A stretch of 64,000 nucleotides of DNA from Promethearchaeota archaeon (lineage in GTDB: Archaea > Asgardarchaeota > Hermodarchaeia > Hermodarchaeales > Hermodarchaeaceae), in NCBI GenBank assembly GCA_048938385.1, contig JBHLMG010000013.1:1-64000 (forward strand), given 5' to 3'. The translations under genes were made by a program, and so were the position numbers. Below are positions 1 through 51,860 of the stretch, in pieces; position 1 is the first letter of the stretch, and every line of letters starts with the position of its first letter. Under the pieces are notes generated by a model. It was given only the letters and a program-made list of their open reading frames with translations. It did no database searches and had not been told where the DNA came from.

Positions 1-157
1 CCCCCCCGGGCGGGGGGGCGGGGAGTTGGTTGGTTTATAGGCGTTGCGGTAAGTGGTGAAAAACTGCATTTGGGCTTGGTATAGTTGGGTGTAAGTTGTG
101 TTGGGGCTGAGTTGGGGTGATGGGTCTGAAAATTAATAGGGTTCGTGGTGGTATTAG

Positions 158-1291
158 GTGGTGGTGGATGGGGTGGTGCTGCTGGCTGGTTTGAAGGTTC
201 TGTTGATTGTGGGGTTCTTGTTTGTGGGGTCACTGCCAATTGGTGGTCTTGGTTTACCGCTTCAGGAGGTGGTGCCGGTCATTGTGGATATGGATGTGGA
301 TCCGTCGGATACGGGGGCGCTGTTGTATTTGTTGAAGCATCCGGGTGTTTCGGTGCGGGCGGTGACGGTGTCGTGTGGGATTACCTACATCGATGAGGGT
401 GTGGCGAATGTGTTGCGGTTGTTGGCTTATCTGGGGATTCGGGATATTCCGGTGGCGGGGGGAAAGGTGACTCCCCTTGCCGGGGATAATGCGTTTCCCA
501 CATCGTGGCGGGATGGGAGTTTTAACTTCTATGGGTTAGATTTGCCGCCAACGGACTTGCAACCTTCGGAGCTGAATGCGTCTGAGTTGATCATTTCGGT
601 TATCACCGGTTCTGCAGAGAATGTCACATTAGTGCCTTTAGGTCCGTTGACGAACATTGCCATTGCGCTGCAAGCAGATCCGTCGATAAGGGAGAGAATT
701 ACGGTCATCCACTGTATGGGTGGCGCGGTGACGGTTCCGGGAAATGTTGGTTATGAATATCCACCCATACCGAACTATGCAGCGGAGTGGAACATTTGGG
801 TTGACCCCCTGGCGGCGGATATCGTGTTCACATCCGGGGTTCCCATCACGCTCATTCCCTTGGATGCTACCAATGAGGTTCCAAAAAATGAGGCGTTTCG
901 GACGAGGTTGGAAAGTGAAATGCGGACGCCAGAGGCCGCGATTGTCTACGAATTTCTTCGACCAGGATTGGGTGCCTATTTCTGGGATCAGTTGGCTGCT
1001 GTTGCGTTAACGGATCCATCCGTAGTGACTTTTGAATGGCATTACATTGAGGTGTTGGTCGATGGGGGAAATGAAACCGGCTGGACCCAATCGCTTGTCC
1101 AAGACCCACCGAATACCAAGGTTGCGGTACATGCTAATGCTCAACTCTTCGAGGACATTTTCCTTGCAGTACTCAATTATCTAGAGCCATACCCAGCTCT
1201 CCTGGGCCTCATTATAATTGCCGTCGCCGTTGGTGTAGGAATTGTACTATGTATCATTGTCATAGTATACTTCCGACGAAGGGAACCCTAG
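158..1291 (+). CDS. Nucleoside hydrolase (IU/IAG-NH family) with hydrophobic N-terminus and C-terminal membrane anchor
   Basis: Asp-rich DMDVDPSD, GPLTN, MGG, AEWNIWVDP, PLDAT and YFWD motifs; C-terminal TM followed by RRREP; start codon uncertain. Confidence 0.85.
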   Translation: MVVDGVVLLAGLKVLLIVGFLFVGSLPIGGLGLPLQEVVPVIVDMDVDPSDTGALLYLLKHPGVSVRAVTVSCGITYIDEGVANVLRLLAYLGIRDIPVAGGKVTPLAGDNAFPTSWRDGSFNFYGLDLPPTDLQPSELNASELIISVITGSAENVTLVPLGPLTNIAIALQADPSIRERITVIHCMGGAVTVPGNVGYEYPPIPNYAAEWNIWVDPLAADIVFTSGVPITLIPLDATNEVPKNEAFRTRLESEMRTPEAAIVYEFLRPGLGAYFWDQLAAVALTDPSVVTFEWHYIEVLVDGGNETGWTQSLVQDPPNTKVAVHANAQLFEDIFLAVLNYLEPYPALLGLIIIAVAVGVGIVLCIIVIVYFRRREP

Positions 1292-1492
1292 CCACTCCCT
1301 CTTCATAGCAAAAATCGGTTGCATCAAGGGGCCTTATCACGAGGTGTAGTTGGGGGTTGGGGCATGGGGGTGTGGCTCCAGTAGTGGTGGGTGTGGGGGG
1401 TAGAAGAACTCCACTACTGGCTGGGTGCGAGGATTTTGGGTGTTTTTTAGGCGTTGTGGTTTTGGGTGGAGAGTGGCTGAATGGGGGTTTGG

Positions 1493-2149
1493 TTAGCTTT
1501 TCAAGGGGTTCGTGGGGGGTAGGTTGGTGGTGTCGGTGATATGACGGAGGAAAGTGGTGCCGGCGATGGTGAGGAGGGTGAGCAGGAGGAGGGTGGGTAG
1601 GTAGATCGTGTGTAGGAGGGCGAGGGGGAGAGCGCCGTACTGGCAGCCGATTTGGATGGTGTGGATGCCTCCGTGGGCGTAGAGGGTGAAGAAGTGGGTG
1701 GCGGTGGTGAGGAGGTGGAGTCGTTGGGGGAGGGGGAGGAGGGTGGTGCAGAGGGCTAGACCGCTGAGGCTGCCGGTTTTGGCTCCGGGAAGGAGGGCAC
1801 CGAGTGTGGTGGAGTCGCGGGGGGTGAGGAAGAGCATGCCGTTGAGGGCGCCAAGGCTGCCTCCCAGGAGGAGGCTGATGGTGGTGGCGAGGAACAGGGC
1901 GGAGGGGAAGTGGATGAACATTTGGTAGAGGATGGCGGCGCCGGGGCCTTCAAGGGTCATGCAGTCGTAGGGGCGGTTATACAGGGTGGGTGGGAGGTAG
2001 GCGAGGTTGGCAAGGAGGGTGGTCAGACAGTTGTAGGTTATGAGGGTGGTGGAGAAAATGAGGAGGAACCGCTGCGACCAGAGTCTTTTGGTCTTAGGTG
2101 TTCGGGGTAGAGGTGTTGCCGGTGTCACGGTGTCTAGTGCGAGCTGCAT
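1493..2149 (-). CDS. Hypothetical membrane protein
   Basis: 218-aa ORF with about 4 hydrophobic segments; Leu/Thr/Pro-rich, matching the strong local base skew. Confidence 0.45.
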   Translation of the reverse strand: MQLALDTVTPATPLPRTPKTKRLWSQRFLLIFSTTLITYNCLTTLLANLAYLPPTLYNRPYDCMTLEGPGAAILYQMFIHFPSALFLATTISLLLGGSLGALNGMLFLTPRDSTTLGALLPGAKTGSLSGLALCTTLLPLPQRLHLLTTATHFFTLYAHGGIHTIQIGCQYGALPLALLHTIYLPTLLLLTLLTIAGTTFLRHITDTTNLPPTNPLKS

Positions 2150-2297
2150 CCCTCAGACCTGTAGGTACACAGGTCCTTGGTGGATTATGAATCTACGGTT
2201 TAGAACAGTGCGTTCTCTGGGACTGGTTAGGCGGGTGTGAAAGCGCGTGACCTCGTCATTTGTTTGGTGGGGGGTTCTGGTTGGTTCCCAAGCGTGT

Positions 2298-2753
2298 TCA
2301 CTCGGCTAGGGGGTTACTGGGTTCTGGTGTTAGTTTGCGGTATCGTTCACACAGCGCTGTAGTGAGGAAGATGAAGATGGAAAGTGCGGCAACATGTTGG
2401 ATGATGGCCAAAGGGAACTGAGGGGAGGGCGTCCATTGTGGTCCGAAGTAGTGGAAGAGGGCACTCATTGTGGCGGCGAATAGGAATTGCCAGATGAATT
2501 GTGCTATTTTTTTGTGCTTCAGGTGGGTTTCGAGGTAGTACCAAACGGGCATGTGGAGGAGCCAGGGTGTGGCCATGCCGATGGTCCACAAGGTGTTCGT
2601 GAGGACCGCAAAGACAGTGACGAGCATCAGACTGATCGCGAAGACAAAGATCAAAAAGGAAAACTGTTGGGTACTGAGGCCACTCCACGACAAATTCTTC
2701 TCCCTCTGATACGACTTGGCGAATTTTAAAGAAATAAACATTGCTGAAATCAT
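2298..2753 (-). CDS. Hypothetical membrane protein
   Basis: 151 aa, about 4 TM segments. Confidence 0.55.
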   Translation of the reverse strand: MISAMFISLKFAKSYQREKNLSWSGLSTQQFSFLIFVFAISLMLVTVFAVLTNTLWTIGMATPWLLHMPVWYYLETHLKHKKIAQFIWQFLFAATMSALFHYFGPQWTPSPQFPLAIIQHVAALSIFIFLTTALCERYRKLTPEPSNPLAE

Positions 2754-2965
2754 AAGTCATCTCGTGTCTCACATAATCGCTGAAATTTCAAACAATTACA
2801 TTCAATGTAGAATCCGTTATCCCAAGATATCCGAAATTACCTTTAGGGTAAAAGCGGTATGAGCCTGTTTTTCTTCCAATGATTGGTGTAGCATCTTCGA
2901 ATTCGTTTGACTTCAATGGGGACATTTATCTTCGTGTGTTACTTGTTCTATTACAGGGAGTGTTC

Positions 2966-3184
2966 ATGGGAAAAAAGAAGATGAAAAAAGCAGAAGTGGG
3001 AAAAAAGCCGACTTGGGCTGAATGGCTGATTGAAGGCAAAAAAGCGCTCGCCATCCAAGATGACCAACCTCAAGATTCGAATTTCATTCCCCACGATCAT
3101 GCAACGCAAGGATTTGCTGGCATTTCAAGCCCTAATCCTGGTGTATTATCCGTAAGACCCAAGAAACAGAAGAAGTCCAAATAA
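2966..3184 (+). CDS. Small basic hypothetical protein
   Basis: ATG at 2966 preceded by GGGAG; Lys-rich termini; part of ORF 2879..3184. Confidence 0.45.
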   Translation: MGKKKMKKAEVGKKPTWAEWLIEGKKALAIQDDQPQDSNFIPHDHATQGFAGISSPNPGVLSVRPKKQKKSK

Positions 3185-3369
3185 ACATTCTAGGTTCTTG
3201 CAGGATTTGGGAATTCTTTACTAAAGTCACGCCTTCCCAAACTGCCAAGCACCCGCTGTTTAGAACAGGTTAATCTCCCTTCTTTGCATGAATGTATGCT
3301 CTGCTTGTTCATGCCTCTTCGAATGTGCTTTGAGGTATTCCTTTTGTCAAAGGTAATCTTATGTTGGTG

Positions 3370-3402
3370 AAAAAGGAGGGGAGCCGGGTGGGGATACCCG
3401 GC
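3370..3402 (-). terminator. Putative terminator of the 3435..5177 gene
   Basis: 7-bp stem GCCGGGT/ACCCGGC (3383-3402) followed by a pyrimidine/T run on the minus strand. Confidence 0.45.
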
Positions 3403-3434
3403 GGTGGGGATTCTCGTCTAAGAGCAGCAGGGTG

Positions 3435-5177
3435 TTATGGAGGTTGGTACCAGTCGGCGTAGATGGGGTCGGTTGTGAGGTAGTAGTCGTCGAAGTCGGG
3501 GTAGGGCGTGGTGATGGGGATGCCTTCGTCGGGGGCGGGCCAGTCGGTGTAGGGTACGATGATGATGTAGGGGACATCGATTCCTGGGGTGAGAGGTCCG
3601 GAGGTGGTGGTGGTTTGCCAGTCGTCGAGGTGCCAGTCGGTGGGGCCGTAGGATTTGTCGTACATCCATGGGTCGTAGTAGGCGAAGACGGGGGCGAGGT
3701 CCCATCGGGGTGGCGTGGGCGATGGGTCGTAAAGTTCGCTTTCCGTGGTGATGGTGATGTCGATGGTGACGGTTTTTCCGACGACATTAGGATCGCTGCT
3801 GTCGAAGAGGATGACGTCGAATGGGCCCGTGCCCGGGGTGTCGGTGCAGGCTGGGGTTTCGGTGCCATAGGCGGTGTGATCCCTTGTTATGGTGTAGGTA
3901 TATTCCGTGGTGCCGGCAAAGGATCGAGCGATGTGGATGTCATGGTTGTCGCCGGCTTTGTGGACGACTGAGGTGAATTCCAGCTGGATTGATTCGAGGT
4001 AGCCGTTGGCGTAGGTTTCTTGGACATACATGTTCATGCCGAAGTCGTTGTAGTCGAAGTCGCCGCCTGTGCGGTCTTCATAGCCGATGTAGGCATTGCC
4101 CTCTTCGGGGAAGGTGATGATGATTGGTTGCACGGTGTAGGGAATGTAGGTGGCCCAGTTCTTGCCCAGGAAGTCGAGGCCGTCGCCCCATGCCGTTTCG
4201 GTTTGATAAATGGGGGTGCATTCGAGGCCAACATCGATGAAGGTGACCTGGGCGACGAGGACTTGTTCACCCGTTACAGGGGCTAGGATAACGGCAATGG
4301 AATCGCCGCATCCGGGTTCAAAGTCTTCACCGTTGGCTTGGGCGTCGGTGAGGATTTCGTCGACTCGGGTCTGGCTCCATGCATCGAGACCTGCGGTCGA
4401 TTGTCCATCCTCAATTAAGGCCCAGATGGCTCGTTGAACATCCCCATATGTGTAGATTCCGCTTGAGAAGGGAGACGGTTGACCAACATAGGCTTGATTG
4501 AGAATCCAGTTGACAAGATCCAGGTTCTCAGGATATTCTATCAAGCTAAGGGGAAGCTCTTCATAGCTGGAAAATACATTTGCGGTATACCAGGTGTTTT
4601 GATTGATGACATGATCCGTGTCTGCACACCACCCTTCATAGGATCCAGTCAAGGGATCCCCTTCGACCGTGGTCACGGGGAAATACGCTGGACCACCTGC
4701 GTAGGGATATTGGACGCTCATGGTGACGGTGTCTGGTAACACATCACTGAACTCGTCCAGGCTGGGGGGCTCATAACCGATTAAGCGTTGCACCACGGCA
4801 TGGGCTGCAATAAAGAGGTCAGAATAAGACGGCCAGGTGAGCGAAATCATGTAGGTGTGTTCGGTGATACAGGGGTCCCATTCGTCGTTGTACATGAAGT
4901 GGCCAGGGATGGGGTTTCCTCTTCTCTGTGGAATCAGGTCAGGAGAAGTGGCGATGTGAAGGTGCGTTTCGGTAATGCACCAGGGATCAACAACTTCGTA
5001 TTTCACATAGAGGTAGTTTAGGTCGTTCCAGATACTGACATCACCCACATCGATTGCGGATTTGGCATTACCACCTCCGGCAATCAAATCCACGACCAAG
5101 GGGTCGTCTTCCGTGTGCGCGGCAGTCAGGGGAACGAGTCCGGCGAATAAAAGCACGATTGCTACTCCTAGAAACAC
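3435..5177 (-). CDS. Secreted acidic multidomain surface protein with a putative thioester (TED/TQXA-like) domain and C-terminal LruC-like domain
   Basis: Signal peptide; WCAD...VQRAIW pair; YEDRTGGDFDYND and PYIIIVP..WPAPDE..I..PYPDF motifs. Confidence 0.7.
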   Translation of the reverse strand: MFLGVAIVLLFAGLVPLTAAHTEDDPLVVDLIAGGGNAKSAIDVGDVSIWNDLNYLYVKYEVVDPWCITETHLHIATSPDLIPQRRGNPIPGHFMYNDEWDPCITEHTYMISLTWPSYSDLFIAAHAVVQRLIGYEPPSLDEFSDVLPDTVTMSVQYPYAGGPAYFPVTTVEGDPLTGSYEGWCADTDHVINQNTWYTANVFSSYEELPLSLIEYPENLDLVNWILNQAYVGQPSPFSSGIYTYGDVQRAIWALIEDGQSTAGLDAWSQTRVDEILTDAQANGEDFEPGCGDSIAVILAPVTGEQVLVAQVTFIDVGLECTPIYQTETAWGDGLDFLGKNWATYIPYTVQPIIITFPEEGNAYIGYEDRTGGDFDYNDFGMNMYVQETYANGYLESIQLEFTSVVHKAGDNHDIHIARSFAGTTEYTYTITRDHTAYGTETPACTDTPGTGPFDVILFDSSDPNVVGKTVTIDITITTESELYDPSPTPPRWDLAPVFAYYDPWMYDKSYGPTDWHLDDWQTTTTSGPLTPGIDVPYIIIVPYTDWPAPDEGIPITTPYPDFDDYYLTTDPIYADWYQPP

Positions 5178-5532
5178 AGTTTTCCGTTTCAGAATTTACT
5201 CCTCCCTCAAATTGAGGTGGTACTATTTGCTATCCGTCGCATAAATAGTTTTCAAAAAAGGGGGGCTAGGTTCGTCTGTAGCGTCTGGAAAGTTATTGAT
5301 TCAGGGGTGTGGAGGGGAGTCGGAAGCGTGCAGGGTGCAGTGGAGGTTTCTGTGGACGGCTTTGATATTCTGTTGTTCAAATTAGCGATGATGCGGTGTT
5401 GGTGAGGGAGCGTGTGAGAATGTTGGGTTGGGAATCTAAAGCCTGAGACTCTGCGGATTTTCTTGAGTGCCTGTGAAGTATATATTGGGGTTAGGGGCAT
5501 AGAGAAGAGGCGAACGAGTCTTAGGTGGTTCG

Positions 5533-6828
5533 GTGATGGGCGGCTTCGTGTTTGATGGGTTATCGTTTCGGGAAGTGTTGTACACGGTATTGCTCCCTTT
5601 CTTGGTGACCCTGTTTTTTCTGCAGGGGTTTCGGACCTTCGTGGTGGATGTGTACATTGCGCTGTTCAACATTCTATGGGAAGGGACGGGGGAGTACCTA
5701 CCGTTGTTAGCGTTTCTCGTGTTCGCCATGCCCTTGGTGGCGGTGCTGTTTTTGCGCCGTGGTGTTCCGCCGCGCGTGTTAGGAAGCGGGAGTGCTATGG
5801 GCGTGGCGGTGTGTACTGTGCCATTGAGTCTACTGCTCCCCTATGAGGTTGAGCTCTTGTTGGCGTCGTTGGTGATTGCGATGTACTCGATGTTTTTGCC
5901 CCTGTACCTGTTCCAGCGAAGGCAAGCACCAGCTACGCTCGGTTACTCCGGTGATGCCGCGTTCCTCGCGGTGAGCATGGTGTTTGCCTTCAGTTATGAT
6001 CTGCTCTTTCGCACCATGGGGACAACCTATGATCTTGCGCGAACGCCCCTGGCGTTGCCAGTGCAACTCGTGTTCGCCATCACGATCATCGGTCTGGTCG
6101 TGTGGCACCGCGTCCAACCTCCATCCACCGCGGAGAGTGCACATAACGCTACGGAAACAGGGAGTGGCGGAAACTCACGAGGCTCACGGGTCACGGGCGT
6201 GTTCACGATGGCCGGCCTTGGATTCTTGCTCTTTCTCCAACATGGACTTCTGTTAAATCCTCATAACCTGCTCCGCTGGGTCTATCCCATCTACTTTCTC
6301 TTCGATGTAACGGTCGTCTTACTACTCACCTTTCTCATCCTAGTTTTTGCCGCACTAATCTTAGTGTATAATAGGTCGCGTGCGTCGCTACAACGAGTGC
6401 CTTGGTATTGGCTTGCTATCACTAACCTAGTGCTGACGGTGTTCCTGGCGTTCATCTTCCTTACGGAGGGGTGGCTGGATGCCATTGGAGAGATCATCAT
6501 CATCAGGATGACATTGGGATGGCTGGATGTCATTGGGGTGATTGGGTACCAGCTGGTTCTGATCTTTAACCTCTTTTTCTTACTTCAGTTGAGTCTGCAT
6601 CCCTCCGTCCGCTGGTCCGCTACAACCTTGTTAGTGGCGATGTTTCTAGCTCTGCTCGTTTTTTTGCTGTGGGATGTGATGTTTGCCTTCACCTTCGTCC
6701 ATGCCTATCTCGGCGATATTGGGACCATCTTCGCAGGGCACGCCATCACTATAGTTGTCAGCGCGGCTATAATTCTCGGAATATGTTCCATCTTCGCAGT
6801 CTATAAGCTGAGGAGGTTATCGCAATGA
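5533..6828 (+). CDS. Polytopic membrane protein, resembling the membrane part of CWH43-like proteins
   Basis: About 11-12 hydrophobic helices; ATGA overlap with the downstream EEP gene. Confidence 0.75.
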   Translation: MMGGFVFDGLSFREVLYTVLLPFLVTLFFLQGFRTFVVDVYIALFNILWEGTGEYLPLLAFLVFAMPLVAVLFLRRGVPPRVLGSGSAMGVAVCTVPLSLLLPYEVELLLASLVIAMYSMFLPLYLFQRRQAPATLGYSGDAAFLAVSMVFAFSYDLLFRTMGTTYDLARTPLALPVQLVFAITIIGLVVWHRVQPPSTAESAHNATETGSGGNSRGSRVTGVFTMAGLGFLLFLQHGLLLNPHNLLRWVYPIYFLFDVTVVLLLTFLILVFAALILVYNRSRASLQRVPWYWLAITNLVLTVFLAFIFLTEGWLDAIGEIIIIRMTLGWLDVIGVIGYQLVLIFNLFFLLQLSLHPSVRWSATTLLVAMFLALLVFLLWDVMFAFTFVHAYLGDIGTIFAGHAITIVVSAAIILGICSIFAVYKLRRLSQ

Positions 6829-45117: not shown

Positions 45118-46515
45118 TTGTTTCTATGCTATTTCTGGGCAGTGACACTGGAGAATCCCATTATGAATGTACCCGCGCTCCAGATCAATCGATGGAAAAA
45201 GGCGTTCCCCTTAGCTGGATTTAAACCCGCGTTAAATCCCCCTACTGATGCCGAACGCCGGTTAGCTCAACAGTTTTGCCCAGCTATTTTTGTGGATCTT
45301 GCCCTCATAAAGGAAGAACAAGCTGACATCGCTCATCACCTTGGAATCGACCAGAAAAAAAGTGGTTTTGTTGCGTCATTAAGGGAACGGGTTCGCGGTC
45401 GAGATTTTGCGGGAATGGCGGATGCACTCTTCTTATTCTGTCTCGGTGAGTTTCCGAGTAATCTCACTGGGGCTAAACTCGCAATCCTTGGTGTTGCCCT
45501 TCCTGAGAGCGAACTTCCTTGGGACAAAGAGATGCACCGTGTACTTGATGAGTTCAGGACTCGTCTTCGCGCCGACTACGAAAAGGAACTGTTTGAATTT
45601 ATCAGGCAACTCTATTACACGATATTTCCCTCAGAGGAAACTCCTACCTGCGTAATTAAGTACCGTGTCAGCCAAGACCCTGCTGACTCCAATGTATTTG
45701 GCATTCAATACTTCGCCTATTGGCCAATCCAGCTATTTCCAAGGCATTTGTTCGATTATGAACCCATTACAGTTGTTGTCCGAAAAGAAGGAAAAATATT
45801 CGAGCCCCTACTCGTTGCTTTTAACGCAGAATATGGAGCGCGACCTTTATTGAAAGGTAAGCGCCCGGGACACAGTATTCGGACTTTTTTCAACTGGGAT
45901 AGTCGAGATTTACAGATCGGTCCGTCCGACTTTAATCCGATGGCCGATTACATGACTAAGGCCTTTGGGGGAAGTTATTACTACGAAGAGATACCTGATG
46001 ATCGCCGGTTAAGCCACATCAACAACCTTCAGTGTGCAGACAGCCCCATCGCGCTAAATGTACAAACCAAGTGGCACTCCTATGACCTCTGTAATGCTGA
46101 TGTGCTTCGAAGTCAAAGACCCCTTCCCTGCAAGCTTCACCCACTCAAAACTCAGGATTTGCTACATATAGAATGGAATGTGCTGGATCCCTTCCAAGCG
46201 CCATTTCTTTATCCTAATATCGGAAAGAAAAACGCCCTGATGCATTTTCCTTTGAACGCTGCTACACTATGGCAAGGTGAAACCTATCGCCGGTGGAGCG
46301 ACTACGCGTTAGTCGAGTTTCATATCAAGCATGGTCGCCCATCACAAACGGTTTCCAATTTGTATGCTTATCAGGTTGGCTTGTTCATTGACTTGTTTGC
46401 AGAAATCACCGGTGAAGGGTTAGGCTTAAGCATGTGGCCTCTCATCGAAGCACGCGAGCGTGAAATCAAGGATACCCTCTCATTCATCAAACGGTTGCGC
46501 CGATCCAAAGACTAG
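45118..46515 (+). CDS. Hypothetical protein, possibly Vps62/NPP1-like
   Basis: FCPAIF and IQYFAYWP...HLFDYEPITV; real start probably downstream. Confidence 0.6.
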   Translation: MFLCYFWAVTLENPIMNVPALQINRWKKAFPLAGFKPALNPPTDAERRLAQQFCPAIFVDLALIKEEQADIAHHLGIDQKKSGFVASLRERVRGRDFAGMADALFLFCLGEFPSNLTGAKLAILGVALPESELPWDKEMHRVLDEFRTRLRADYEKELFEFIRQLYYTIFPSEETPTCVIKYRVSQDPADSNVFGIQYFAYWPIQLFPRHLFDYEPITVVVRKEGKIFEPLLVAFNAEYGARPLLKGKRPGHSIRTFFNWDSRDLQIGPSDFNPMADYMTKAFGGSYYYEEIPDDRRLSHINNLQCADSPIALNVQTKWHSYDLCNADVLRSQRPLPCKLHPLKTQDLLHIEWNVLDPFQAPFLYPNIGKKNALMHFPLNAATLWQGETYRRWSDYALVEFHIKHGRPSQTVSNLYAYQVGLFIDLFAEITGEGLGLSMWPLIEAREREIKDTLSFIKRLRRSKD

Positions 46516-48091: not shown

Positions 48092-48787
48092 TTGTCTTTT
48101 TCAAGTCGTAACCCTAGCACCGATAAGAGTCGTTATGAACGCGTAAGTATCGAGGCTGCAGACCTCGCACTTGAAGGTCGCCTTGCTTTGGTCAGCGATG
48201 CAAATCAACCTGGTTTAGTGCTTTGCCATCCACATCCACTAATGGGGGGTAGCATGGATGACAGTCGACTTGTTACCTTGAGTAGGGCTGCTGTCGCCGC
48301 AGGTATCAATACGCTCCGCTTTAATTTCCGAGGAGTTGGACAAAGTCAAGGAAAATTCGGGCATGGGGTGGGTGAAATACAAGATACGATTACTGCGGTG
48401 AATTATCTTCGTAACCATCCATATGTACAAGGATCTCGGATCGCCCTTTTAGGCTACAGCTTCGGAGGTAGCATCGCTCTCGCCGCTGCGATGGATGCCA
48501 CACCCGTTGCTCTTGTAACGATTAGTGCGCTATTTAGACTTCCAGACCTTGATCCATCTATTGTAACTGAGGCGCTTCGCTTTATCCCCTGTCCAACATA
48601 TGTATTACACGGGCGCGAAGATCGAACAGTTAACCCGGTTGAAGCTGAAGCTATCTTCGCTAAACTTCAGGTCAAAGAAAAGTATCTCAGGGTAATTAGA
48701 GGTGCTAACCATTTCTGGAGTCGCCGTTTGGGCACCATCGTTCCAATGATAATTGCATTTCTTCGAGATAAACTCGATATGAAATGA
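48092..48787 (+). CDS. Alpha/beta hydrolase
   Basis: CHPHPLMGG, RFNFRGVGQS, GYSFG nucleophile, D and H (GANHF). Confidence 0.9.
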   Translation: MSFSSRNPSTDKSRYERVSIEAADLALEGRLALVSDANQPGLVLCHPHPLMGGSMDDSRLVTLSRAAVAAGINTLRFNFRGVGQSQGKFGHGVGEIQDTITAVNYLRNHPYVQGSRIALLGYSFGGSIALAAAMDATPVALVTISALFRLPDLDPSIVTEALRFIPCPTYVLHGREDRTVNPVEAEAIFAKLQVKEKYLRVIRGANHFWSRRLGTIVPMIIAFLRDKLDMK

Positions 48788-48917
48788 GCTAGAATTTTTA
48801 GGTAACATTTGAGATTGCGCAAAATCATAGATTCTCCTTCATGAAGTCGGATTTCCATAGTTTTTTAAGAACGCATCTAGAAGAGAACTCCGAGCGGCAC
48901 CGACAAAGGGACTGACC

Positions 48918-49166
48918 ATGACACAATCGGCAGGGCGGTTCTTCATCTCATCGGTGAAAGAAATTGGTCAATGGGATTGGACCAAAACTGACCAATGCTC
49001 TGTCTGTGGTCTCAGAATCCGTGACGGGCAACAGATGGTCTTCTGTACCAGTTGCGGAAACCCCGCCCACTATACCCACCTTGCGGAATGGGTAAAGACG
49101 AGAGGAACCTGCCCCATATGTCGGAACCGCATAAACCTCAGAAGGTTGAAACCGGTTAGAAAATAG
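48918..49166 (+). CDS. Small RING-finger protein, putative E3 ligase
   Basis: CxxC-x12-CxxC-x4-HxxH-x3-W-x6-CPxC. Confidence 0.85.
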   Translation: MTQSAGRFFISSVKEIGQWDWTKTDQCSVCGLRIRDGQQMVFCTSCGNPAHYTHLAEWVKTRGTCPICRNRINLRRLKPVRK

Positions 49167-49179
49167 TCGGGTGAAAAAA

Positions 49180-49416
49180 ATGCGAATAGAAGTTGTACCA
49201 GCGATTGGTGGTAGTGATCCTATTGCACTTGAGGTGGAGCCAAACACTACTATTGGCGAAATCCGGAATCGCGTTGCTCAGATGCGTCGTATTCCACCTA
49301 ATATCGTCATTCTAGCCTACCGTGGTGCTCAATTGACTGATGAACAATCTGTCAAAAGTGTCGGTATCACACCCCATGATAAATTGTACCTCATCACACG
49401 GACTGAGGGCGGTTAG
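49180..49416 (+). CDS. Ubiquitin-like protein ending in free GG
   Basis: Aligns with ubiquitin (LEVEP, TI, IPP, G.QL, R..GG); GGTGA SD 5 nt before ATG 49180; alternative GTG start at 49171. Confidence 0.93.
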   Translation: MRIEVVPAIGGSDPIALEVEPNTTIGEIRNRVAQMRRIPPNIVILAYRGAQLTDEQSVKSVGITPHDKLYLITRTEGG

Positions 49417-49535
49417 AGTCTCCTTAACCCTTCGGTTTCGATCTCTGTCGCCCTTTGTCTTCTTCTTTTCTATGTAATAGAAGATTATTCACTGCGTTTG
49501 CCATAAATTAACTAGTTGGCAGTGGTAACCAACCG

Positions 49536-49549
49536 AAAAGGTATTTATC
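49536..49549 (+). promoter_or_regulatory. Putative BRE/TATA promoter for the E2-E1 genes
   Basis: GAAAAGGTATTTAT in the Ub-E2 gap, after a T-rich terminator-like stretch. Confidence 0.4.
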
Positions 49550-49607
49550 TCTAATGCAGTTGGTTAGGTTACTGGGGACCGGCAGTGTAGACAGAGGCGC
49601 TGTCCGC

Positions 49608-50069
49608 ATGTTATCAGAAGAGGACTACTGGGCAAGACTCGCTCTTGAAGCCAAAAACATAGAAACCGAGGAACCTTCCTTCCAACCTATACAAGGTGAC
49701 CTTAGGCGATGGCAAGGCTTCGTTTTAGGTACGGGGATTTATGACGGGGGGGTGTTCGTTCTCCAAATTAATGTGCCCAGAGCTTTTCCCTATGAACCCC
49801 CTCAAGTCCGATTTATCACTAAAATATGGCATCCAAACATCTATCGTGGCCGTGTCTGCGTCGGCGTCTTGGGGAAAGACTGGCTTCCCAGCATGTCTCT
49901 TTCTGGTGTAATAGAAACGCTCCGGAATTTACTTAACTTTCCAAACCCTGACGATCCACTAAACCAACAAGCTTCGCGAGAGGCGAAACGAAACCCTGAA
50001 CAATTTGAACGCACTGCACGAGAGTGGGTTAGACGCTACGCAGGATGGGACCAAATACAACATAGGTGA
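49608..50069 (+). CDS. Ubiquitin-conjugating enzyme E2
   Basis: YDGGVF, FPYEPP.V.F.TKIWHPNI, active Cys in GRVC, PNPDDPLN; ORF track starts at 49554. Confidence 0.96.
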   Translation: MLSEEDYWARLALEAKNIETEEPSFQPIQGDLRRWQGFVLGTGIYDGGVFVLQINVPRAFPYEPPQVRFITKIWHPNIYRGRVCVGVLGKDWLPSMSLSGVIETLRNLLNFPNPDDPLNQQASREAKRNPEQFERTAREWVRRYAGWDQIQHR

Positions 50070-51109
50070 AACACAGCGTGAGCGAGCAACTCAGTGATGA
50101 AAGAAAAAAGATTCCCGTATATCATGGAACCGAGCGCTATGCACGTCAACTTCTCATCGCTGAGTGGGATCAAGAAAAACTCGCAAAATCCACAGTCGTT
50201 GTTGCAGGCATTGGCGCTTTAGGCACTATTGTAGCTCTCGACTTAGTCTTAACTGGTATTGGAAAAATCATAATCATTGACTTTGACACCATAGAACTAT
50301 CAAATTTGAGTCGACAATTACTCTTCAGTGATGAAGACATCGGAAAATCAAAAGCGGTCATTGCAGGTCAACGCCTTCGGGAAATGAATCCAGATGTGCA
50401 AGTTCTTGCCTTAGACAGTTCCATCCAAGAAGTTCGCACATCATTTTATGAAGAGGCCGATCTCATCGTCGATGGTTTAGACACTTTTGAAGCGCGTCGA
50501 TGGCTGAATTCTTTATGTGTACAGAAAAACAAAGTTCTCATTCATGGAGGAATGTATGGTTGGTGGGGTAATGTTCAACGCGTTGTACCATTCAAGACGG
50601 CGTGTCTTGAATGCCAACCTCTAGTTCCGGCTGAACGGCTGCAAAAGGCTTGTACTCCACCTGGGCAACGACGGAAGACGGAAGAGCCTCCACCCAAGTT
50701 TCCGGCGCTCCTCGGTGTTGCCACCGTTGTTGCTGGTATCCAATTTCAGGAAGCTCTCAAACACCTCCTAAGTGTAGGAAACCCCTTGGACAATTACTTG
50801 TTTTATGACGGTCTTCATCAACAGTTTACCACTCTGAAATTAGCCCGTAACCCAAACTGCTTCCTCTGTAGTGATCGATTTCGACTCAAAGGTGAAAAAT
50901 ACGCTTTAGATCCGAAGGAAACAGTGGCTGAACTACGGAACCGATTGATCATGAGCTTTGGGTTGCAGGCGCCAAAAATAATTCTTCATGGCCAAATACT
51001 GGCCGACGATAAAATCCTCGGGGATCTACGACTCAAGGACGAAGAAATGCTCTTCATTATTGATACTGCATTAGCACAACCTTTGAAACTCATAGCGGTC
51101 TTCAAATGA
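50066..51109 (+). CDS. Ubiquitin-activating enzyme E1 (ThiF domain, catalytic Cys, C-terminal Ub-fold domain)
   Basis: RYARQ, GIGALG, SNLSRQ, CLEC, KACT, CFLC and a C-terminal beta-grasp-like region. Confidence 0.92.
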   Translation: MKHSVSEQLSDERKKIPVYHGTERYARQLLIAEWDQEKLAKSTVVVAGIGALGTIVALDLVLTGIGKIIIIDFDTIELSNLSRQLLFSDEDIGKSKAVIAGQRLREMNPDVQVLALDSSIQEVRTSFYEEADLIVDGLDTFEARRWLNSLCVQKNKVLIHGGMYGWWGNVQRVVPFKTACLECQPLVPAERLQKACTPPGQRRKTEEPPPKFPALLGVATVVAGIQFQEALKHLLSVGNPLDNYLFYDGLHQQFTTLKLARNPNCFLCSDRFRLKGEKYALDPKETVAELRNRLIMSFGLQAPKIILHGQILADDKILGDLRLKDEEMLFIIDTALAQPLKLIAVFK

Positions 51110-51860
51110 CAGGAAGGACTGTAACTCGAACTAATACGGCCACTATTATCATGAAGAGGGTTACTCCCATTGTGATGGTTAACGCAATGTTGGTAGTTAA
51201 CCGGTAGCGTTCACGAATACCCATCGCTAGTAGGAGTGCGCCCCACAACAAACCGATGCTTAGAAGTCCATATACGATCAACCACAACGGGCTAAGATAC
51301 AGGCTCGCTAAATTACCTAAGGTTGCGTAGGGAAGCCCGAGCATTAGTACGACGAACGATAACAAATTAGCAAAGAAGAGCGGTAAATGCGCATATTGAC
51401 CCATAAGAAATGTTTCCGCAAGCATTCCTTTTCGTCCTGTGAGTCCAATTAGAAGCTGAATTAGCCCAAAATAGAAGAGATTCAGGAGCATGTAAAGCGC
51501 GGCTAGAATAACGAAAACACCGAAGAAGCCGAATAATAGGCTTACAGTAGCTCCCACAATATGGGACGCTAATGCCACATACCATAATGAAATCAAAGTT
51601 AAATTTCCTATGAAGATGAGCGCTGGACCTTTTCGGTCGAGTTCGTGGGCAATATCCCAAAAAGCCACAGCAGGAAACCGAATGATCCCCCAAAGGCGTT
51701 GAATCAGGGTCAATCGTTTATCCCATTGTTGTTCAGGTCGACGCATAAAGGGTAATATCCTCTCAAATTGTTCTGTGCGAAAGCGATATCCACATTGCGG
51801 GCAGGTTGCGTCTTGAGATTCAACTCGGATAAGACACTCTGGACACCGAAGTTTCGACAT
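51102..51860 (-). CDS. Yip1-domain membrane protein with N-terminal zinc ribbon
   Basis: CPEC..CPQC; P...F......D..GP pattern; 5 TM segments. Confidence 0.75.
   Translation of the reverse strand: MSKLRCPECLIRVESQDATCPQCGYRFRTEQFERILPFMRRPEQQWDKRLTLIQRLWGIIRFPAVAFWDIAHELDRKGPALIFIGNLTLISLWYVALASHIVGATVSLLFGFFGVFVILAALYMLLNLFYFGLIQLLIGLTGRKGMLAETFLMGQYAHLPLFFANLLSFVVLMLGLPYATLGNLASLYLSPLWLIVYGLLSIGLLWGALLLAMGIRERYRLTTNIALTITMGVTLFMIIVAVLVRVTVLPVI

Follow-up and report, generated by a model that had tools for sequence, protein, structure and literature searches.

The first 64 kb of contig JBHLMG010000013.1 (C1; 65,469 bp), from a Promethearchaeota archaeon of the class Hermodarchaeia, contain a compact, eukaryote-like ubiquitylation cassette. 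This stretch, referred to below as the window, comes from a metagenome-assembled genome (MAG; GCA_048938385.1) of 2.48 Mb in 51 contigs that is 89.8% complete. Four intact open reading frames (ORFs) on the forward strand, spanning 48918-51109, encode in this order a RING-type ligase (E3), ubiquitin, a ubiquitin-conjugating E2 enzyme and a ubiquitin-activating E1 enzyme. A sequence-only reading of the window had interpreted them as a system without a JAB protease, whose neighbours (DNA repair genes, a Yip1 gene and leuS) pointed to a distinct set of targets. Here, the cassette, its surroundings and its counterparts in related genomes are described, and the origin of this neighbourhood is assessed.

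The RING protein begins with a conserved N-terminal loop, GxWxW, and carries eight zinc ligands (C27, C30, C43, C46, H51, H54, C65 and C68) in the order C4-H2-C2, unlike the classical C3HC4 or C3H2C3 arrangements. All eight ligands, together with W19, W21, W58 and P66, are invariant among nine sequences from five families. Ubiquitin may start at GTG 49171 (81 aa) or at ATG 49180 (78 aa), and its C-terminus, TEGG, is immediately followed by the stop codon. Caldiarchaeum ubiquitin (6FJ7 and 2MQJ) provides its top single-domain matches in the PDB at 78 bits, compared with about 32 bits for eukaryotic ubiquitin. Beyond the N-terminus its only lysines are K62 and K71, a scarcity that fits mono-modification and speaks against degradative chains.

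In the E2, the HPN motif (residues 93-95) and Cys102 align with the active site of UbcH5b, which is the top PDB match (E 2.4e-30). The E2 stop and the E1 start overlap by 4 nt. The E1 contains a GxGxxG motif (G48/G50/G53), two CxxC pairs (C180/C183 and C265/C268) and, within a KACT motif, C196 as the candidate catalytic cysteine; these glycines and cysteines are invariant in a nine-sequence alignment covering several Asgard families. Its closest PDB sequences are those of eukaryotic Uba1 (E 1.6e-34). Residues 279-329 show a weak match to the ubiquitin family in Pfam (20.5 bits), and in the AlphaFold model (mean predicted local distance difference test score, pLDDT, of 76) the tail from about 277 to 346 adopts a beta-grasp fold at pLDDT 80-91. 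In Foldseek, the model retrieved UBA3, the NEDD8 E1 subunit, first, over about 405 columns that include the ubiquitin-fold domain (UFD), compared with about 250 columns for ThiF. A fused second modifier was considered for this tail and ruled out, as the tail has no GG end and the alignment of the whole protein to UBA3 extends through the C-terminal UFD. The sequence-only reading is therefore borne out for the E2 HPN motif and cysteine, the GxGxxG motif, KACT cysteine and ubiquitin-fold tail of the E1, the eight ligands and tryptophan of the RING, and a modifier that ends in GG-stop.

The element upstream of the RING gene, which contains a TTTTTTAAG box, is near-identical in an alignment of the window with three relatives and unique within the window; it may act as a promoter. 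The stretch after the ubiquitin stop, which includes a T-rich tract in the window, is also T/C-rich in aligned relatives. Further downstream, the core of the ACCGAAAAGGTATTTA box, which resembles a B recognition element (BRE) and TATA box, is invariant in six aligned sequences from two genera and again unique within the window. The spacer between ubiquitin and E2 measures 137-190 bp and is conserved within the family. Because the first E2 ATG (49554) lies only 7 nt past the ACCGAAAAGGTATTTA box and the start kept in relatives is ATG 49608 (MLSEEDYW), the E2 probably begins there and comprises 153 aa (49608-50069). The cassette would then probably be expressed as two small transcription units, RING-ubiquitin and E2-E1. 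A scan of the window against Rfam at gathering thresholds returned no RNA family.

With the E2 as query, 15 Hermodarchaeota-type loci were retrieved at 80-89% identity, and the four cassette proteins are 66-100% identical across them. Identity ranges from 66 to 83% for RING in the 14 Hermodarchaeial relatives that retain it (77-83% against same-genus relatives), and from 95 to 100% for ubiquitin in 11 relatives, with 72-75% in four more divergent ones. In loci that extend far enough, the downstream order of RING, ubiquitin, E2, E1, Yip1 (reverse strand), LeuRS and a ZnuA-like gene is kept. On the upstream side, each of the 14 assessable loci has a divergent UEV-type E2-like gene, at a distance of about 1 kb from RING. 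At locus L014, the genes on this side encode a 178-aa coiled-coil protein, a UEV/Vps23-core protein (with HPR and without a catalytic cysteine), Vps28, a 97-aa protein, EAP30 (Vps22/36), ESCRT-II/Vps25 and Vps4 with MIT, AAA and Vps4_C domains, that is, components of the endosomal sorting complexes that are required for transport (ESCRT). A closed 1.4-Mb genome from another family has this order too: RING-ubiquitin-E2-E1 adjoins coiled-coil, UEV, Vps28, Vps22, Vps25 and Vps4 genes there. The loci L045 and L046, from two other Asgard families, contain RING-ubiquitin-E2-E1 with no ESCRT genes within 8 kb. Adjacency to ESCRT does not define membership of the cassette, since ubiquitin and UEV-Vps23 are reported to be unclustered in Kari-, Gerd-, Jord- and Heimdallarchaeia (bioRxiv 10.1101/2023.07.25.550441).

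In the present genome, no ESCRT-I/II gene lies within 10 kb of the cassette. All the genes of the cluster described for L014 are retained about 37 kb away, running through C47:18494-20872 into the contig end and then through C30:13-2662 from the contig start, and UEV-Vps23 (C47:19137-19892) shares 91% identity with its counterpart in a relative of the same genus. The 185-aa coiled-coil protein (C47:18494-19051), whose counterpart in relatives is encoded between UEV-Vps23 and RING, matches no Pfam family above threshold, a weak match to Bacillus_HBL (20.5 bits) being the only one obtained. The protein is the equivalent of the uncharacterised asCOG005522, which has been likened to a Vip-type helical protein (bioRxiv 10.1101/2023.07.25.550441). 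Two tandem ESCRT-III (Snf7) genes are found at C9:31303-32382, away from the contigs that carry the ESCRT-I/II/Vps4 cluster.

The altered surroundings can be traced to a single rearrangement. The alpha/beta-hydrolase gene that adjoins RING in the window lies, in six relatives, 32-41 kb downstream of ubiquitin, on the opposite strand of the same contig. In 11 of 11 relatives this hydrolase gene adjoins a gene of 445 aa, which in the present genome is found on C47 beside the coiled-coil gene. A tblastx comparison of G014:C8:36000-90000 with C1, C47 and C30 yielded the collinear segments listed in Table 1, whose order reads as exactly one inversion of a segment of about 37 kb with both reciprocal junctions recovered; the pieces (16.5 kb, 18.3 kb and a gap of about 2 kb) compare with 36.9 kb in G014. 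By the same collinearity, the end of C1 (65469) and the start of C47 (position 1) are neighbours, with about 2.1 kb between them absent from both contigs, and the other end of C47 joins the start of C30 within the ESCRT cluster. At the junction in the window, the hydrolase stop lies at 48787, and the aligned likeness to the RING-upstream DNA of relatives ends upstream of about 48813-48850. No direct or inverted repeat of at least 9 bp is common to both junctions, and no recombination substrate or insertion sequence element was identified there. Tandem duplication and circular permutation were also considered as origins of the hydrolase-RING junction and ruled out, as the gene orientations fit only an inversion.

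One breakpoint falls in the intergenic DNA that separates RING from the divergent coiled-coil gene on the ESCRT side. The inversion carried the cassette away from the ESCRT cluster, so that it now lies at the segment's far end, and left both promoter-proximal regions intact. Both the RING-proximal conserved element and the proximal upstream region of the coiled-coil gene are kept. Because the inversion placed the cassette there, the DNA-repair and hydrolase genes now form its upstream flank. We regard the cassette, with a probability of about 0.85, as orthologous to the standard ubiquitylation cassette of Asgard archaea (Hermodarchaeia type), with an odd neighbourhood that arose through this inversion. 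The earlier proposal that the neighbourhood marks different targets is not sustained, since the repair and hydrolase flank derives from a genome-specific inversion and ESCRT genes adjoin in 14 of 14 assessable relatives; the gene order itself is already documented as that of the standard Asgard cassette.

Table 1 Features of the cassette, its control elements, the inversion and the JAB genes. Coordinates without a contig name refer to the window; for collinear segments, the location is that of the counterpart in the present genome.
Feature	Location	Strand	Remarks
RING E3, 82 aa	48918..49166	+	zf-RING_2, 31.7 bits (Pfam)
Ubiquitin	49171..49416	+	Pfam ubiquitin PF00240, 43 bits
E2 ubiquitin-conjugating enzyme	49554..50069	+	longest ORF, 171 aa; UQ_con, 119 bits (Pfam)
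E1, 347 aa	50066..51109	+	ThiF, 214 bits (Pfam)
Zinc-ribbon and Yip1-domain membrane protein	51102..51860	-	Pfam Yip1, 33 bits, and Zn_ribbon_3
Inversion breakpoint, hydrolase flank/RING-proximal intergenic DNA	48788..48850	.	alignment with relatives
RING-proximal promoter-like element with TTTTTTAAG box	48851..48880	+	38-67 nt upstream of RING ATG
T-rich tract, candidate archaeal terminator or attenuator	49454..49471	+	3' of ubiquitin stop
BRE/TATA-like box ACCGAAAAGGTATTTA, candidate internal promoter for E2-E1	49532..49547	+	conserved core
G014:C8 38.5-41.2 kb	C30	-	tblastx
G014:C8 41.2-43.65 kb	C47 20911→18420	-	tblastx
G014:C8 43.84-60.39 kb	C1 48985→65469	+	tblastx
G014:C8 60.39-62.55 kb			about 2 kb unmatched, tblastx
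G014:C8 62.55-80.72 kb	C47 10→18333	+	tblastx
G014:C8 80.82-90.0 kb	C1 48784→40634	-	tblastx
Rpn11-type JAB, 236 aa	C23:280501-281211		best PDB match Caldiarchaeum Rpn11 (CsRpn11) 6FJV, E 5e-29
Prok-JAB, 153 aa	C15		inside exosome/RNase P superoperon
Prok-JAB, 203 aa	C22		33 bits; next to ThiF-family gene

On this basis, a pathway for the cassette can be proposed. Ubiquitin would be made already mature, ending in GG. The E1 would adenylate it and hold it as a thioester on Cys196, after which the C-terminal ubiquitin-fold domain of the E1 would recruit the E2 and ubiquitin would pass to Cys102. The RING protein would then promote transfer to target lysines, the best-documented target being the ESCRT-I protein UEV-Vps23, and removal of ubiquitin may be performed by the unlinked Rpn11-type JAMM protease encoded on C23. 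In vitro, the Helarchaeial E1, E2 and RING proteins mono-ubiquitinate UEV-Vps23 at K201 in the steadiness box, and the N-terminal loop of the Helarchaeial RING contributes to UEV binding (bioRxiv 10.1101/2023.07.25.550441). A role like that of the Helarchaeial cascade would fit the invariant GxWxW of the RING N-terminal loop, the 91% identical UEV-Vps23 and the lysine-poor ubiquitin, and the sequence holds no hint of retargeting.

A profile search found no match to JAB or Prok-JAB on C1, in line with the sequence-only reading as far as the window is concerned; the claim fails for the genome, where three JAB/MPN genes occur on contigs other than C1. One encodes an Rpn11 orthologue whose JAMM motif (HxHPx7SxxD) is intact. 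At C22:14551-16021, a ThiF-family gene (373 aa, 116 bits) is overlapped at its start by the 203-aa Prok-JAB gene. The two form a prokaryotic-type JAB-E1 pair apart from the eukaryote-like cassette; their neighbours include a Cys-rich 128-aa protein. Overall, the genome contains four ThiF-family genes, four ThiS/MoaD-type genes and three weak extra RING candidates. Profiles for OTU (PF02338) and USP/UCH (PF00443) had no match in the genome; as the controls stayed silent and genome completeness is about 90%, this does not imply absence.

The premise that Asgard ubiquitin operons usually include a JAB gene was not supported either. Each genome sampled from five other Asgard families encodes an Rpn11-type JAB of 215-280 aa that is unlinked to the ubiquitin gene, as is also the case in the present genus, and in the closed genome the two are 828 kb apart. 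A JAB-free cassette is thus the rule in the genomes sampled. Because the stop codon directly follows GG, the ubiquitin needs no C-terminal processing, as the sequence-only reading had proposed. This agrees with the finding that E1 activates Caldiarchaeum ubiquitin without the help of Rpn11 when the protein is truncated to end in GG (PMC5654768), yet the feature is not distinctive: GG-stop occurs throughout the present genus (all same-genus relatives) and at four of seven other loci, the remaining three ending in GGSVKY, GGW and GGY.

On the downstream side, the Yip1 gene, whose product has an N-terminal zinc ribbon, converges on E1 with an overlap of 8 nt, and in every Hermodarchaeial locus it overlaps the E1 3' end. 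The position is the same in 13 Hermodarchaeial loci from two genera, the gene remained beside the cassette when the inversion took place, and a Yip1 gene is noted in the Hodarchaeial ubiquitin cluster (bioRxiv 10.1101/2023.07.25.550441). In another family (L043), a Yip1 homologue lies about 5 kb from ubiquitin. The gene is a conserved neighbour that is possibly linked to the cassette in function. That this zinc-ribbon/Yip1 membrane protein, and not ESCRT, is the partnership that matters seems to us rather unlikely. If it were, the protein could be a membrane receptor or a substrate of the ubiquitin system, and the inversion would amount to a natural experiment in which ESCRT adjacency is dispensable.

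Several points weigh against an orthologous cassette displaced by inversion. The inversion is known from a single MAG, and neither junction turned up in an independent assembly: scanning metagenome contigs for exact copies of a 46-nt junction sequence returned 0 matches, and a search of contig records with the exact RING protein found none. For activity, for the choice between mono- and poly-ubiquitylation and for the substrate, the reading extrapolates from proteins of Helarchaeia and Caldiarchaeum at roughly 30-50% identity, and the promoter and terminator assignments follow from conservation and resemblance to consensus. In addition, the inversion has parted the cassette from the genes of its presumed targets, and some regulatory uncoupling is possible. 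The assembly could also be at fault, with the standard ESCRT-RING adjacency being the true one and C1 and C47 each chimeric at an intergenic region. A source in 51 contigs, the missing independent assemblies and an ESCRT cluster split by a contig end (C47 to C30), which marks the region as fragile, would all suit an assembly or binning artefact. Such an artefact would, however, need two exactly reciprocal chimeric joins, both in intergenic DNA, at junctions with no common repeat of 9 bp or more to mislead an assembler, and the segment lengths add up to match G014; we consider it quite improbable.

Two further interpretations concern function. The cassette could serve mainly general proteostasis, with proteasome tagging and Rpn11-type removal as proposed for Caldiarchaeum, and the ESCRT adjacency would then be only historical. 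A close CsRpn11 homologue in the genome, a ubiquitin nearer to that of Caldiarchaeum than to eukaryotic ubiquitin, the ESCRT-free surroundings of L045 and L046, and the tolerance of separation in the present genome are compatible with this role. We nevertheless judge it unlikely, given that tight ubiquitin-ESCRT linkage is kept across several Asgard classes (PMC9192718), that the Helarchaeial cascade ubiquitinates UEV-Vps23 directly, and that so few lysines are available for degradative chains. A retargeted, JAB-independent system, in which NurA/HerA/Mre11/Rad50, Yip1 and leuS would indicate substrates other than ESCRT-linked ones, is very improbable. Hydrolase genes and a Rad50-type ATPase do flank the cassette upstream, its ubiquitin ends in GG-stop, its contig has no JAB gene and Yip1 is a conserved neighbour. 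The upstream flank is nonetheless only as old as one genome-specific inversion and absent in the relatives examined, while Yip1 and leuS also flank cassettes that have ESCRT on the other side and so are no mark of a different system. JAB-free cassettes and GG-stop ubiquitins are usual among the Asgard genomes sampled, and RING, including its N-terminal loop (77-83%), and UEV-Vps23 (91%) are as conserved as the other components and show no sign of having diverged since the relocation.

Elsewhere in the window, two features were recorded. A 465-aa protein encoded at 45118-46515 on the forward strand, immediately downstream of the Rad50-like gene, matches neither Pfam nor NCBIfam and occurs at the same position in G014 with about 75% identity. 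Compared with the remainder of the window, positions 1-6000 have a raised G+C content (0.51-0.55) and a strongly positive GC skew (0.19-0.37), and the Rfam scan gave no family in them.

Beyond annotation, an orthologous cassette displaced by inversion is of little import, although it adds one more example of the Asgard ubiquitin system, which is already invoked in the case for ubiquitin-ESCRT coupling being older than eukaryotes. Its value is mainly corrective: the inference of new targets from the neighbourhood stemmed from a recent inversion, and the JAB gene expected in Asgard ubiquitin cassettes was not borne out in six families sampled, and GG-terminated ubiquitins are a common feature of Asgard genomes. 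The inversion also shows that in nature the cassette and the ESCRT cluster, each keeping its promoter-proximal region, can lie at least 37 kb apart in one genome.

Compared with eukaryotic cascades, the present system is similar in having an E1 whose adenylation domain is nearest Uba1 and whose whole fold, including the UFD, is nearest UBA3, an E2 nearest UbcH5b and Ubc4 with HPN and a catalytic cysteine, and a cross-brace RING with eight ligands and a conserved tryptophan. Unlike eukaryotic E1s, however, its E1 consists of one short chain (347 aa), lacks both a separate inactive adenylation domain and a large catalytic-cysteine domain, and keeps MoeB/ThiF-like CxxC zinc motifs. The RING is C4-H2-C2 in contrast to RING-H2 E3s, and the ubiquitin is devoid of most chain-forming lysines.

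The operon of Caldiarchaeum subterraneum comprises ubiquitin, an E1-like protein, an E2-like protein, a small RING finger protein and a juxtaposed Rpn11 (PMC5654768, PMC6043591), and its E1 also has a ubiquitin-like (UBL) domain at the C-terminus (PMC5654768). The present genome shares all these components, namely ubiquitin (78 bits to 6FJ7/2MQJ), an E1 with a C-terminal UBL, an E2 of the UBC fold, a small RING and an Rpn11 orthologue. It differs in that Rpn11 is not adjacent, and in that the nine-residue propeptide of Caldiarchaeum ubiquitin is lacking, so no maturation step is needed. In addition, the present system belongs to the ESCRT-associated Asgard cassette lineage.

Clustering of ubiquitin and ESCRT genes has been described by Hatano et al. 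2022 (PMC9192718) and Makarova et al. 2024 (PMC10936438), and Hermod- and Helarchaeial genomes have been singled out for their tightly clustered genes of both systems (bioRxiv 10.1101/2023.07.25.550441); a cluster of UEV-Vps23, RING and ubiquitin in Hermodarchaeia is already on record (bioRxiv 10.1101/2023.07.25.550441; PMC9192718). The closest resemblance is to this Asgard cluster, known from Hermod-, Odin-, Hel-, Baldr- and Wukongarchaeia, which has the same four components in the order RING, ubiquitin, E2, E1, a small RING with an N-terminal loop, an E1 with a C-terminal ubiquitin-fold domain and a JAB gene outside the cluster. In genomes of the same family, orthologues that are 66-100% identical adjoin ESCRT genes. 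The Helarchaeial ubiquitin that was tested carries a four-residue extension, SPKN, whereas the present one is encoded mature with GG-stop. The parting of cassette and ESCRT genes by an inversion of about 37 kb is found in the present genome only. The system is thus a known one, and only the inversion is specific to this genome.

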